Virus genome (UHGV): UHGV-0074812
Reading direction: 5' to 3' (one strand)
DNA length: 29,386 bases
Origin: a virus
The translations under genes and the position numbers were made by a program. Shown piece after piece: positions 673 through 20,331 of this stretch; position 1 is the first letter of the stretch; each line of letters opens with the position of its first letter. Below the pieces are notes generated by a model, which saw nothing but the letters and a program-made list of their open reading frames with translations, did no database searches and had not been told where the DNA came from.

Positions 673-696
673 ATAAAAAAACCCAGCCGAAGCTGG
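673..696 (-). terminator. Rho-independent terminator between ant and tailspike (hairpin cccagc-cgaa-gctggg followed by U-run on minus-strand transcript)
   Basis: Perfect 6-bp stem at 681-696 with A7 run at 674-680 on plus strand (= U-run 3' of hairpin on minus strand). Confidence 0.6.
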
Positions 697-716
697 GTCG
701 TTGCGTTGGTTATCTG

Positions 717-1607: not shown

Positions 1608-1619
1608 ATCAATAATACC

Positions 1620-1690
1620 TCGTAAGTTTTGTTGATACCGAAGCCCTGACTGTTCCCGCAGTTGGGGCTTCACTGTTTTTGTAAGTCACT
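1620..1690 (+). ncRNA. Candidate sar-like antisense RNA opposite the ant translation-initiation region (hypothetical)
   Basis: Plus-strand intrinsic terminator (stem gaagccc / gggcttc, 1637-1668, then ctgttttt) lies antisense to the arc-orf73-ant transcript just upstream of the ant RBS; P22 is known to make a ~68-nt sar RNA in the equivalent place. Promoter not confidently identified (weak TTGACA/TTGACT candidates at 1586-1606). Confidence 0.3.
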
Positions 1691-1891
1691 GTAGCTATAA
1701 AGCCACTGACCACTCATTTTTGATTTGATTGACTCTACTGAGTCACGGCAAGGAATGATTCCGCCTGACATCATTCTGATCTCCGTAAATTCACCACTCC
1801 TTATCGATTCAATGCCATCAATGTTAACTAAAGATTTACCTCTACCAAGTGCATTCTCATAGCCAATCTCATCAACCTCAATAAACCTCAT
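1670..1891 (-). CDS. Hypothetical 73-aa protein inserted between arc and ant
   Basis: [47 protein letters not shown]...; ATG overlaps the arc stop (ATGA at 1888-1891), GAGGGG 9 nt upstream; no family recognised. Confidence 0.5.
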
Positions 1892-2618: not shown

Positions 2619-2824
2619 ATAAAAAACAGCTTATTAAGTCAAAAACGTCAAGCAAGGAAGAATTAGAGAAGGAGCTAAACTCCCTGAAATATGCTCTGTG
2701 TCTGGTTTACTCAAGACTGCCAATGGAAGATAAAAACGCCATTTACAATGAAATGATTAGCAGCCTTGATTTTAACGATAGAGACCTAGCATCCCACCTC
2801 AACAGCTTCCGCGTCCCTGAGTAA
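2615..2824 (+). CDS. Hypothetical 69-aa protein, translationally coupled to upstream membrane protein
   Basis: ATGA start/stop overlap at 2615-2618, AAGGA RBS; no recognisable family. Confidence 0.5.
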   Translation: MNKKQLIKSKTSSKEELEKELNSLKYALCLVYSRLPMEDKNAIYNEMISSLDFNDRDLASHLNSFRVPE

Positions 2825-2984
2825 TTCTGTTGCGGATTTGCTTCTTGCGGTGGTTTAAGCTGGAGAGCTTGGCTTCTGCTTCTGATATTTGCGCATCTAG
2901 ATCTTTAAGCTCAAGATCTGAAAGTCGCTGGTCAAGCAGGGTTTGATTCAACTCAATGTTGTTCAGACGTTCTTCTATGGTCAT
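2799..2984 (-). CDS. Hypothetical 61-aa coiled-coil protein
   Basis: Strong AAGGAG RBS 7 nt upstream of ATG at 2984; heptad-like sequence (LSDLELKDLDAQISEAEAKLSSL); converges on and overlaps the 3' end of the plus-strand ORF by 26 nt, so one of the two may be spurious. Confidence 0.4.
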   Translation of the reverse strand: MTIEERLNNIELNQTLLDQRLSDLELKDLDAQISEAEAKLSSLNHRKKQIRNRITQGRGSC

Positions 2985-2996
2985 GATTACTCCTTA

Positions 2997-3022
2997 TAAA
3001 AAACCCACCTGACGGTGGGTTT
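2997..3022 (-). terminator. Intrinsic terminator hairpin (cccacc-tgac-ggtggg) flanked by A-run and T-run; strongest in the minus direction
   Basis: Perfect stem 3004-3009/3014-3019; on the minus strand the hairpin is followed by UUUUUUUAUAAGGAG, i.e. terminator directly abutting the RBS of the 61-aa ORF. Confidence 0.6.
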
Positions 3023-3319
3023 CATAGTTAGTTTGGGACCGGACTTCTCCATTGAAAAATAAGAGGTTTTTTGAATTTTTCTAGCAAAAATGGATCAACA
3101 AAATCAGCCATATAATTCGTATTTAGAAAACGATCTACATTCCTCACATGCTCACCGATTCCTGCACATCAACGCCAAGTTTTGATGCAGGCGTTGCCAT
3201 TCTGGAAAGTCTCTACAAAACACAATTGTACCGCTCTCAAAGAGCGGAACTAGCATCTTTGGTACTTTTCCAATGTTAACTTTTTTCATGGTATCCTGCG
3301 TAAAACTAAGGAGGTTGGT

Positions 3320-3742
3320 GTGTTTGGTATATTAACGAGAAGCAAGATAAAAAAATTAAGGGCAGAACTCGCCGAAACACAAAAACTGGCTTCACATTTT
3401 TACAAAATGAAATACGACGCTGAAGAGCGTGCATTCGTTGAGTTATGCGATTTATCTATTCGTATGGGAGTAGAGCCAGATGTAGCGGCAAAAACTCAAC
3501 AAGGCATTGATATACTTGCAGATGTTGTTTTAAACAGGCAATATGCGTTTTATCTAAACGAGAAGGCCATTCAGATTTACTCGCAAATCTTCCTCCTGGA
3601 AAAAAGAAGAGGAACTCACGATCGAGAAGAGTGGTTAAATGAAGTTGTTAAAAAATCTGGCTGGGAAGTTGTTTCATCAGAACTACCTCTTATTTGTGCT
3701 GATTTAATCGAAGAGGCAAAAGAGCGCCTATCCGATGGCTAG
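3320..3742 (+). CDS. Hypothetical 140-aa soluble protein in accessory island (GTG start)
   Basis: GGAGG RBS 5 nt upstream of GTG at 3320; preceded by ~300 bp AT-rich non-coding DNA; opposite orientation to flanking late genes; no recognisable family. Confidence 0.65.
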   Translation: MFGILTRSKIKKLRAELAETQKLASHFYKMKYDAEERAFVELCDLSIRMGVEPDVAAKTQQGIDILADVVLNRQYAFYLNEKAIQIYSQIFLLEKRRGTHDREEWLNEVVKKSGWEVVSSELPLICADLIEEAKERLSDG

Positions 3743-3766: not shown

Positions 3767-5923
3767 TTACTCCTGTGCCATTCCGCTTAGCGATGCCACA
3801 ATTCCAGCTCTTGCTAAACGCTGGAACTCTTCGTTTCCTAGTGCCTCGCGTATTGCTTTTACGGCGGCCTTATTTGCCATAAATCTGCGTTCCGCCGCCG
3901 CTAATGCACCATCACTTGCCCCAACCTTAACTGCCTTTGTTGCCTCTTGAACAGCCTTTTCAATAGCGTAACGACCACTGCGGGATGCAGCTAACTTTTC
4001 TATCGTCCCTTTAGCTATAGATCCAGAAACAGCCCCTACAACACCGCCAACAATCCCTCCACCAGTAGTACCAACAATAGCCCCTGATGTTGAATTGCCT
4101 ATTGCATTGAGAACTGTCATGACAGCTTTTGGCAGTCCTTGCTCAAGAGAGTTAATTGCCGGTATAGAGCGCCCCGTATGCTCTACATATCGCAGTGGTC
4201 TGGTTGCTGCTCTGGCAAGGTCGCTGTATGCCCTAGCAATCCTACCCATTTCTGGCGAGTGCCTACTAATGGCAGTAATGTTCTGCGGCGTAAGGATCGA
4301 CGCTATATGGAATACGCCAGCAGACTCTGATTTACCGCCACGCACCCCTTGCGATACCGCATCTTGTAATATTGATGCAATTGCAGGAGATCGCTCAGAC
4401 TCTGGCAGCGCGCCAATAATCTGATGAAACTTTCCTGTCCCACTTTTTGATGAATTTTGCAAGGCTTTAATACCATCAGTGACTAACTGATCAGTTGCAA
4501 GGTTTCTAAACGCTGCTTCAGCCTGTTCTTGTGCTGTAAATCTTGCTTTTGACAGATCATTAGCTTTTTGCCAGTCATCAAGAAAACCGCCATTTTGAGC
4601 CATTATGCGCATATCTTCCGTTGCTGCATCACGAAGCTCCGCCATGCGCCTTGCCGTATTTGCCTCACCAGACCTTATATACTTCTGCTCAGCGTCAGAA
4701 AGTTTGCTTCGCCATGCCTTCATGGCATCAAACGTGATTCCTTTTTTACCAGTTTTAGCATAAGCAGATGCAAATTGTTTCATCTCAGGAGTTAGCGGCA
4801 TACCAGCCAAAATATCACCCTGAATTGTAGCGTTCAGGTTTGACATTCTGGCCTTTGCGTCAGGCATCGTGGAGCGGACGCTATCCCATGCTTCCTTTTC
4901 TGAGTTCTTCATTTTATCAATACTTGCTAAAACCCTTTGTTTTATGGCTGCACTTTTTTCTGATGCAGATCCAGCCTCAGCACCAAGTTCATCAAGTGCT
5001 GAGTGGAATTTCGACTGTATTTCACTAAACGCCCTAGTATGTGCATCCTGAACAATTCCTGGTTCGGATGCCAATATCCCTTCGGCTTGTGCAATTCCAC
5101 GACTTCCAGATCGCATTCCTGGTGTTAATGCGTTTATATCAATTCCAGCAGACTCAGCAGCTTTTGCTACATCTTCGGACACATTAGCGGCCTGACTGGC
5201 AATTGACTGACGCCCAGCACCTGACTTTGCCATCCTGGAAACATCATTAGCAGAATTCAGTGCTGCACCACCAAGAGCCTGTGAAACTCTTGGCGCAATA
5301 ACGCGCCCGACACCTGAAAGAACGCCTTGAGCACCAATATTGATACCACCGTTAATGGCAGCATTTTGTGCAAAGTCGCCCTCCTGATTTGCAGCATCAG
5401 CAAGAGAACCGGCAATCATGTTTCCTGCGGAACCGATGTCTCCTGCGAGCTTTGCTGGCGTTCCAGCAGCTTTTGCTGCTGTGCCAATTGGCAGGAGATA
5501 CCCACCAATTGTTTCACCGGCTTGCGCGTAAGGGTCTGTCGGTCGATCGACTGGACGATAGACATCATCCAAAACCTTGGGGCCACCAAGCCCCTGGCTG
5601 ATTGCATTAATCAGACTTGCGCCACCCTGCAATACGTCAAATGGTATGTTTACCAGACCACGACCAGCCTGTTCAGCAATTTGCCCTGCACTTTGACCAC
5701 CTGTGAGCCAATCACCAGCTTGTTGCATCAATGATGGTTCTTCTTTCTGCTGCTGAGGCGGAGGGTATGCTGCATAAAACTGATCTCTTGCTTCAGCCCA
5801 TTTGTCACCAGCCTTAGGGGCAACAACCTCATCAAAATATTGCGCTTGAGCCTGTGCTTTCTGTTCTTCAGTTAACGCCTGATACTGTGGAGAAGCGATA
5901 ACATCTTTCCATGCTTTAGCCAT
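3767..5923 (-). CDS. Ejection/internal virion protein, gp16-like (718 aa)
   Basis: Position last in the gp7-gp20-gp16 ejection-protein block; Ala/Gly/Gln-rich low-complexity sequence typical of these proteins. Confidence 0.7.
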
Positions 5924-7272
5924 TAATCACCCCATAAAGACGAGAAACCGGACTTATTGCTGTCGCTTCCTGATTTTCGCTCACTAACATATGTGTCATA
6001 ACCTGATGAACTATATCCCATTGATTCAGCCTCCCTTGCTGCAACCTTTTGAAATACAGAATATTGCGATCGGATTTCAGATAACTGTTTTCTGACGACC
6101 TCTTCAGGCTGTGTTATATCGAGTTTCGCGATCAGGTTTTCCAGTTTTTGGCCTTCAGCATTGGAGAGGCTACCCATACCTCGCATAGTCTGCACGTTCT
6201 GGACAAACGCACCCGACTTTAATTCTTCTATCGCATTACGGTTTGCAAGCCCTTCAGCACTTGTGAAGCCATCTATATTTCTTCCTTCGAAGCGACCGAT
6301 ACCTTCAAGCTCCTTCTTACCAAGCAAAGAATCAATTTTCTCTATCCCTCGCTCACCAGTAATCAACGCATTGTTGTAATTATTGTTGCCATCAAGCCAT
6401 CTCTTAGCCTGAGACATTCTGGCTGACGTTGCAGCTTTACCGGTTAGCGGATCAATTCCCGTCGCTGCTATCTGTGAGTTAAGAGACAAAACATCCATAT
6501 CCTGAAGTTGTCCTGCTCTTTCAAGGGCCGCCTGTGACTGCTTAAACACATACTTGTCGTGATTCAGTCTTGCCATTTGAGCCTTATAGGAAAGATCCTG
6601 CCCCCTAATAGCCCTCGCATTCGTCATGTCATTATTGCGAATGGTTTCGTTAATTCTTTGCTGCTCCTGCTGGCGACCAACCATCTTATCCTGAACAGCA
6701 AACGCCTTTTCTGGTCCAAGCGCACCGAGAGACATAGTAGTCAGCATGTGTGATAGCTGCTCTGGATTCTGAATACCTGTCTGAATCATCCAGTCAGCAT
6801 TCGCGCCAACGCGATTTAACCTATCCTTGTTGTCAGTAATGAATTTACTGTAGGCTTCCGGCCCCTGAGAAAGAGCGACGTTAGCCCTCATGGCTAAATC
6901 GCCCATATCGTTGCGTTGCTGCTCATTAAGACCGGAAAATGCCTGTTGTGCCTGTGCAACAAACGCTGGATTTTCCTGGGCAAACTTAAATAGTCCCGAT
7001 GGATCACCAGAAGCCCATGCATCAGCGTGAACCTTATTGAACGCATTAATCGCTTTCTGTTGCTGTTCCTGCTTATAAATATCAGCAACTCCAGCCAGAC
7101 CACGTAACGCGGTCAGACCAACGTTATTTGCACCTGAGCGAGCCAACTCATTGTTTTCGCGGATCAGACCAAGCGTTGCGTTAATGTCGCTTGCTTTTGG
7201 CGCATTCTCATTTTGCGCACCAATGCCAGCCAGAAAACCACCAGAATTAATACCCTGTTGCCACGTAGCCAT
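5923..7272 (-). CDS. Ejection/internal virion protein, gp20-like (449 aa)
   Basis: Synteny between gp7 and gp16; size close to P22 gp20. Confidence 0.7.
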
Positions 7273-19842: not shown

Positions 19843-20331
19843 CTACGCTACATGTTTAATTTTCTCTACACGTTTCCGGTTTTTAAACGCACTATCCAGA
19901 ACCGGGTAAATCATAAACAACGAGGCATTGAGGATTTCGTCAACTTCCCGACGACAGGTTGCGAGCGATGGTTTTTGAATGCGCCCGCCGCCCCGGCATA
20001 ACATCTTGCGAGGTCTTGCGACGCGATGATAGTAAGATGCAATGGCGTGCTTGGAAGAGCCGTGGGCGTAGTAGCTGAGGAGGATGCCAAAGGCTTTCTT
20101 GTCAATGTACATGACGGAATCGACGACCTGAGAAATCAACATTCCATCATCATCATTACACATTGGCCTTGTCATAACTCTTCCCGGCTCTACGCTCTCC
20201 ATGAATTTCGCTATTACGCTGCTCATGCGCTTTTCCAGGCGGCCTGAATAAACCCATGCGCCCCACAGTTCAAGCCAGCCATTCAGCCAATCGTGCTGTT
20301 CTTTGGTGAGGTTTAGTTCTCTTATGCTCAT
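19843..20331 (-). CDS. Q: Late-gene antiterminator Q-like protein (162 aa, short Q21-type candidate)
   Basis: Position between ninH and the late promoter/lysis cassette; size matches the short Q family; Cys/His-containing segments. Assignment by synteny and size, not by a remembered alignment. Confidence 0.55.
   Translation of the reverse strand: MSIRELNLTKEQHDWLNGWLELWGAWVYSGRLEKRMSSVIAKFMESVEPGRVMTRPMCNDDDGMLISQVVDSVMYIDKKAFGILLSYYAHGSSKHAIASYYHRVARPRKMLCRGGGRIQKPSLATCRREVDEILNASLFMIYPVLDSAFKNRKRVEKIKHVA

Follow-up and report, generated by a model that had tools for sequence, protein, structure and literature searches.

The window analyzed here is the whole 29,386-nucleotide stretch of UHGV virus genome UHGV-0074812, a P22-like (Lederbergvirus) genome whose late operon lies on the minus strand. 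A gene for a Q-type late antiterminator (19843-20331, minus strand; PF06530, Phage_antitermQ, E 1e-24) is followed downstream on the same strand by the genes for terminase, portal, coat and injection proteins, down to the gp16 homologue (3767-5923). Between gene 16 and the tailspike gene, which starts at 616, lies the variable 'ant moron', a region of P22-like phages that is counted among the lambdoid morons (PMC2629481). In the window, this region comprises, in order, orf140, gene fragments, a hairpin, orf61, the mnt-orf77-orf69 operon, arc, orf73, the sar RNA, ant, and a second hairpin resembling the Tant terminator. orf140 (3320-3742, plus strand) converges on gene 16 and is driven by a homologue of the P22 sieA promoter (3258-3288, plus strand), which has one mismatch to the feature annotated in BK000583. 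The plus-strand mnt operon consists of an mnt-like Arc-family repressor gene (2140-2382; PF03869, E 1.8e-12) and orf77 (2385-2618), both annotated in phage Emek, and of orf69 (2615-2824; 69 codons, phrog_16466) as its last gene. orf61 (2984-2799, minus strand; 61 codons) belongs to phrog_7586 (E 3.3e-44, residues 1-61 of 61) and overlaps orf69 tail to tail by 26 dual-coding nucleotides (2799-2824), in agreement with what an earlier, sequence-only reading of the locus had described. Farther along, orf73 (phrog_11805; 1670-1891, minus strand), which is present in Emek and not in P22, is inserted between arc and ant. A homologue of the sar antisense RNA (1609-1674, plus strand; Rfam RF00262, 61.7 bits, above the gathering score) overlaps the orf73/ant junction, and the immI control circuit therefore looks intact. 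The Tant-like terminator (675-697, hairpin 682-697, minus strand; CCCAGC-UUCG-GCUGGG-U7) is located between ant and the tailspike gene, and the records of P22 and Emek label its homologue a terminator.

The hairpin ahead of orf61 is compact and directly followed by the translation signals of that gene. Positions 2990-3022 of the plus strand read CTCCTT-AT-AAAAAA-CCCACC-TGAC-GGTGGG-TTT, and the same stretch on the minus strand, carried on to the start codon, reads AAA-CCCACC-GUCA-GGUGGG-UUUUUU-AU-AAGGAG-UAAUC-AUG. The core (3004-3019, minus strand) is a perfect 6-bp stem (CCCACC at 3004-3009, tgac at 3010-3013, GGTGGG at 3014-3019) made up entirely of G-C or C-G pairs, as is typical of the stable stem of a Rho-independent terminator; its energy is -10.9 kcal/mol, and three additional A-U pairs can extend it to 9 bp (3001-3022, -14.5 kcal/mol). 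The U-tract of such a terminator is also present directly 3' of the stem on the minus strand (2996-3003, UUUUUUAU), with a U6 run and 7 U in 8 nt. The sequence-only reading had given the stem and loop correctly, whereas the U7 that it assigned to the tail is actually U6-A-U. Since palindromes of this 6-4-6 pattern are expected only 0.02 times per shuffled window with one mismatch allowed, and since the fold z-score at the hairpin is -2.74 (the hairpin alone being the centroid structure), its occurrence is beyond chance. A program scan of the window for promoters and terminators did not call the hairpin, because greedy extension of the stem into the U-tract left too few T in the tail. In an Rfam scan, the two hits on the hairpin, to the terminator ends of Phe_leader and sroH, were far under their gathering scores, and the sar RNA was the sole real match. 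The Shine-Dalgarno sequence AAGGAG of orf61 (2995-2990, minus strand) lies 2 nt past the U6 run and 5 nt from the ATG (2984-2982), and the distance from stem to ATG in the window is just 19 nt; thus, the earlier statements that the terminator ends a few nucleotides before the ribosome-binding site and that no space for a promoter is left between them both hold.

The strand on which this hairpin acts can be judged from its two tails. The terminator discriminant, as d'Aubenton-Carafa et al. reportedly formulated it in 1990, combines hairpin energy with a weighting of the T-tail, and the hairpin was rescored by hand on this basis. The minus-strand tail UUUUUUAU has an nT of 4.52 and a discriminant of +30.9, compared with an nT of 2.88 and a discriminant of -4.2, which is below the threshold, for the plus-strand tail UUUCAUAGUU (UUUCAU); the Tant-like hairpin, scored alike, reaches +36.5. 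Two relatives have a flipped loop (TGAC for GTCA), and their T-run is still found on the late strand. On account of both the discriminants and this constant position of the T-run, the hairpin is predicted to be primarily a late-strand Rho-independent terminator, and it may play a weaker part in ending mnt-operon transcripts. The flipped-loop copies are located at 3966-3981 of the locus L052 (35 nt before orf61) and at 5929-5944 of L068 (54 nt before the second of two orf61 genes), and their unaltered stem and late-strand T-run look like the outcome of inversion or template switching inside the palindrome.

In a less probable alternative, the hairpin would end mnt-operon transcripts on the plus strand, either as its main role or as a second one, and would be a bidirectional terminator between convergent units, like tORF59A of HK620. 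The mnt-orf77-orf69 transcripts would then run approximately 180 nt antisense through orf61 before halting at the hairpin, and any orf61 message in a lysogen would be masked by this antisense 3' UTR. It is consistent with such a role that the hairpin is the first stable one downstream of orf69 on the plus strand, that an A-tract precedes it on that strand, and that in relatives without orf61 it stands 10-24 nt past the stop codon of the last mnt-operon gene. Furthermore, a bidirectional terminator is annotated in HK620 where the corresponding units converge: both tORF59A and the P22 mnt terminator occupy the same position in the ant moron, where late-strand accessory genes (hkcC) meet the convergent mnt operon. 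However, the sequence is unrelated (AAGCCGGGTCACTCCGGCTT), and the window hairpin has a strong U-tract on one strand only and is separated from the end of the mnt operon by orf61. Although the site does lie between convergent units, as would be expected of a bidirectional terminator, its plus-strand tail scores under the threshold, and the T-run remains on the late strand when the loop flips. The difference between the two discriminants also speaks against the hairpin being only a plus-strand terminator for the mnt operon, a case that the sequence-only reading had considered.

The distribution of the hairpin across relatives provides a clue to its role as a putative late-strand terminator. A total of 74 orf61 copies were gathered from viral contigs, assemblies, and phage records, which are prophage-rich collections whose loci are phylogenetically non-independent. 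An identical hairpin is found just upstream of 23 of the 74 copies, 19-39 nt before the start codon (the hairpin start lies 35 nt before the orf61 start in most carriers and 54-55 nt before it in two contexts), and no sense-strand terminator could be detected within 260 nt upstream of the 51 others. In most of the hairpin contexts, a codirectional cargo gene ends just upstream of the hairpin, 41-60 nt before the orf61 start. At least four distinct cargo genes of this kind were observed, including those for a 143-aa lipoprotein, the Emek orf149/161 Panacea pair (SocA/Panacea domain), and two variants of a P63C-domain protein (343-355 aa). Two exceptions to this pattern are the L056-type loci, in which the hairpin lies between the divergent orf59a and orf61, and the locus L027, where 237 nt separate orf61 from the end of the closest codirectional gene. 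The hairpin is absent from all six contexts in which orf61 has a divergent gene (e.g., one for a SieA homologue) starting 25-28 nt upstream of it, and, together with AAGGAGTAATCATG, it is also present in phages without orf61. Such junctions came from a hairpin-pattern scan of viral contigs, which yielded 119 matches, mostly unrelated terminators in unrelated viruses, of which 11 were relevant.

Because the hairpin accompanies codirectional cargo, is missing beside divergent genes, and is present without orf61, sequence comparison identifies it as the fixed border at which a variable slot for late-strand cargo meets the convergent mnt operon, and orf61 is an optional insert downstream of this border. 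The view of the hairpin as a regulatory element of orf61 is not borne out in that form, considering that most orf61 copies have no terminator ahead of them, that the hairpin goes with the cargo, and that it occurs without orf61. In mechanistic terms, it would close a slot of interchangeable codirectional cargo genes at the point where the slot meets the mnt operon, and may thereby keep ordinary RNA polymerase from antisense entry into mnt-orf77-orf69. As the fixed right-hand boundary of a hypervariable slot with defence-type genes (Panacea toxin-antitoxin pair, P63C protein, lipoprotein), the hairpin offers an easily recognized marker when P22-like prophages are searched for cargo genes. Overall, the practical value of these findings is modest. 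In four loci (L093, L118, L148, and L186), an 85-codon ORF (MIYPSNNPP...) runs from a relic Shine-Dalgarno sequence and ATG, at +12 to +269 past the hairpin, and is wholly antisense to a 178-codon gene of the mnt operon; one of these two is probably not a gene.

In the window itself, the slot no longer contains an intact gene. In most relatives a codirectional gene ends a few nucleotides before the hairpin, whereas here only gene fragments are found upstream of it. A 134-nt internal fragment of a P63C-domain gene (3030-3163, minus strand; P63C domain E 9e-14) abuts the terminator, and its 39-codon ORF matches residues ~110-148 of the product of the intact gene in L052 (349 aa) with 97% identity. 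Approximately 600 bp of the 3' part of this gene have been deleted, and the blastn junctions share a 5-nt microhomology at 3030-3034. On its other side, the fragment is joined to a 5' remnant of hkcC, which forms a 45-codon ORF (3152-3289, minus strand; 94-96% nucleotide identity to P22 and HK620); the remnant retains the first ~40 codons (3289-3163), and its N-terminal ~36 residues match HkcC of HK620. The exact hkcC/P63C scar was found in only one of 5426 complete E. coli genomes, and others possess an intact P63C gene. With this cargo gene reduced to fragments, the putative terminator is an orphan, and the sole known minus-strand transcription reaching the hairpin in the window is late transcription. 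It was also observed that hkcC and the P63C gene (window position 3289, and L033) share the upstream sequence and the start codon and diverge right after the ATG, so that their start is a second mosaic junction located exactly at a start codon.

Regarding the expression of orf61, the sequence-only reading had argued that a terminator placed directly ahead of the gene would confine it to antiterminated late transcription. This does not follow from the hairpin, which is the terminator of a neighbor and not a switch of orf61. Nevertheless, late and Q-dependent expression is plausible on other grounds: the strand of orf61 carries a Q gene farther upstream, no evident promoter precedes orf61, and the Tant-like hairpin provides a close parallel. 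orf61 is invariably encoded on the late strand, at a site between gene 16 and the tailspike gene, and one relative has it as the very next gene downstream of gene 16, without an intervening terminator. Terminators inside operons may halt transcription in the absence of antitermination (PMC8022706). Late transcription must cross orf61 to reach the tailspike gene, and it would be expected to pass the Tant-like hairpin 2.3 kb farther on in the same way. The mRNA of orf61 would then most likely come from Q-modified, terminator-resistant late transcription, and translation of orf61 from such a transcript is, in our estimation, somewhat favored.

Alternatively, orf61 might have its own promoter or depend on leaky read-through from promoters on the cargo or hkcC side, which would make it an accessory gene expressed from the prophage instead of a late protein. 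We consider this unlikely. Relaxed sigma-70 scans of the minus strand upstream of orf61 revealed no site above background (8/12 matches occur at 2.5 per kb per strand), and no promoter-like site conserved across the upstream contexts of orf61 was found. A candidate promoter inside the 5' end of orf61, which might have served divergent sieA-like genes, was rejected since its 8/12 match is at the background rate and not conserved. In the window, 19 nt leave little for a promoter, in several relatives a divergent gene begins 25-28 nt upstream, and the hairpin would halt most of the unmodified polymerase coming from the cargo side. On the other hand, the promoter result is a weak negative, because the homologue of the annotated sieA promoter of P22 likewise escaped these consensus scans, and a weak or non-canonical promoter of orf61 is therefore possible; moreover, the region is dominated by accessory genes that are expressed in the prophage (PMC2629481). 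In an RNA-seq study of Kapi1 lysogens, the orf61 homologue Kapi1_061 is absent from the list of undetected genes, and the paper gives no per-gene values for it. This result is compatible with either spontaneous induction or lysogenic expression, and Kapi1 does not have the hairpin.

The anatomy of the site, the coding status of orf61, the association of the hairpin with cargo genes, and the deletion scar are direct observations. The reading built on them, namely an orphaned cargo terminator with a real orf61 behind it and late read-through as the source of its mRNA, appears fairly probable to us, with termination, insulation, and late-only expression as its predicted components. One of the closest known counterparts is P22 Tant, which precedes the tailspike gene 9 and is read through with the help of the gp23/Q antiterminator; it belongs to the same transcript and has the same design as the orf61 hairpin, i.e., a 6-bp G+C stem, a 4-nt loop, and U6-7 on the late strand ahead of a gene with its own Shine-Dalgarno sequence, with a Q-family antiterminator encoded upstream. 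However, gene 9 is an essential virion gene whose expression has been studied experimentally, whereas orf61 is optional and most of its homologues have no terminator ahead of them. Like the lambdoid morons, the locus lies in a hypervariable accessory region inside the late operon, and the hairpin would act as the terminator end of its cargo cassettes. Unlike a moron, orf61 has neither a promoter of its own (none was found) nor a downstream terminator, and its 3' end overlaps orf69; in this respect it resembles a passenger carried along on the late transcript.

Salmonella phage vB_SemP_Emek (JQ806763) is nearly identical to the window from mnt to the hairpin (99.7% nucleotide identity) and encodes an identical orf61 protein, and the same hairpin has already been annotated by its depositors as a rho-independent terminator. 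In Emek, an intact Panacea-type orf149/orf161 pair ends 5 nt before this terminator, whereas the window has gene fragments at that position. Thus, orf61 behind a terminator is an ordinary arrangement for this phage group, with its elements already annotated in a near-identical phage, and the mechanism invoked here has already been established for another gene of this transcript, the tailspike gene. If late-only expression is true, orf61 would be a further case of terminator read-through control, which is well known from that gene.

The only mildly unusual aspect of the locus is that the unit of hairpin, Shine-Dalgarno sequence, and ATG behaves as a mosaic junction. In L052 and L058, a direct repeat of 14-15 nt, A(A)GGAGTAATCATGA, stands on either side of the orf61 cassette (~250 nt) and comprises the Shine-Dalgarno sequence and the start codon. 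A single repeat copy directly follows the same hairpin in L093 and L186, which have no orf61, and in the window only the upstream copy is present (2981-2995). Such a pattern suggests, as far as sequence comparison can tell, that orf61 was gained or lost by recombination between the flanking repeats. In addition, three different contexts are found on the right-hand side of the hairpin and at least five different cargo genes on its left. A broader proposal would be that 'hairpin-U6-AAGGAGTAATC-ATGA' is a portable module boundary and that orf61 and its junctions serve as anchors for recombination and thereby drive the exchange of cargo in the ant moron; we regard this as rather doubtful. One Salmonella prophage (locus L068) contains two orf61 paralogues (4001-4177 and 5983-6168, 58 and 61 aa), which bracket a cargo insertion that includes a SocA/Panacea pair.

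Judged by its conservation at the codon level, orf61 is a genuine protein-coding gene under purifying selection. It is annotated as a gene in phage Emek and is called WP_000151196.1 by PGAP, and its product is 100% identical to those of Emek and Kapi1. The family includes 42 protein clusters in Salmonella, Escherichia, and Serratia, with full-length members down to ~72% identity. Among 54 distinct orf61 coding sequences, the variable columns at codon positions 1, 2, and 3 number 31, 23, and 53, respectively, and the dN/dS ratio is 0.05-0.24 against the seven most diverged copies; several closer copies have synonymous differences alone (up to 9 synonymous and 0 non-synonymous). The start codon is kept in 27 aligned homologues and the 61-residue length in most of them, internal length variants (P0018, P0020, and P0036) remain in frame, and a Shine-Dalgarno-like element (AAGGAG, TAAGGT, AAAGGT, or AGGA) precedes the ATG in every upstream context. 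The conservation of the 61-aa frame in related phages, which had been recommended as a check on the earlier reading, is therefore strong, and both a translation signal and a conserved frame, whose lack would have counted against that reading, are present. It is highly improbable that the ORF is untranslated and owes its conservation to the overlapping 3' region of the mnt operon or to DNA or RNA structure: the ORF is indeed short and has no relatives outside a small family, but low dN/dS is confined to the orf61 frame while the other five frames have accumulated 14-43 stops, its indels, start, Shine-Dalgarno sequence, and length are constrained as described, the overlap with orf69 covers a mere 26 nt, and orf61 persists where orf69 is absent. 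This small ORF, which is labeled hypothetical in hundreds of prophages of Salmonella and E. coli, thus proves to be a real gene confined to P22-like phages.

orf69 is likewise under purifying selection (dN/dS 0.08-0.10). The overlap of the two genes is retained, with a nearly invariant sequence, in lineages down to 72% nucleotide identity (L066, L069, L072, and L074), and orf61 is also found beside other genes without any overlap. The sequence-only reading had suggested that convergent transcription may be regulatory here, and this is a candidate role only. As a part of the rather doubtful proposal on module boundaries given above, the conserved convergent orf61/orf69 pair could form a late-phase switch acting on the mnt operon.

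The AlphaFold2 model of the orf61 product is a single helix (residues 3-60, mean pLDDT 93.7) with an acidic leucine-rich body and a basic C-terminal tail that ends in a conserved Cys, and to the extent of this prediction the earlier 'coiled-coil' label appears reasonable. A profile search of 1.84 billion representatives detected no relatives of orf61 beyond its own family, and searches with Pfam, PADLOC, PDB sequences, and profiles produced sub-threshold coiled-coil noise (DUF3847, MscS_porin, XhlA, JetC, and the HY5 zipper). The name XhlA haemolysin (PF10779), which some sources attach to 89-92-aa calls, was rejected because the score is below the cut-off (14.1 bits versus 34.7, E 0.056) and those calls are merely over-extended at the N-terminus, in an upstream context that differs. 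Finally, an E. coli protein of 58 aa (P0040) consists of the first 28 residues of orf61 fused to the C-terminus of Ant (DVDINEPDG...HNY), which indicates that the whole mnt-arc-ant region has been deleted in that prophage.
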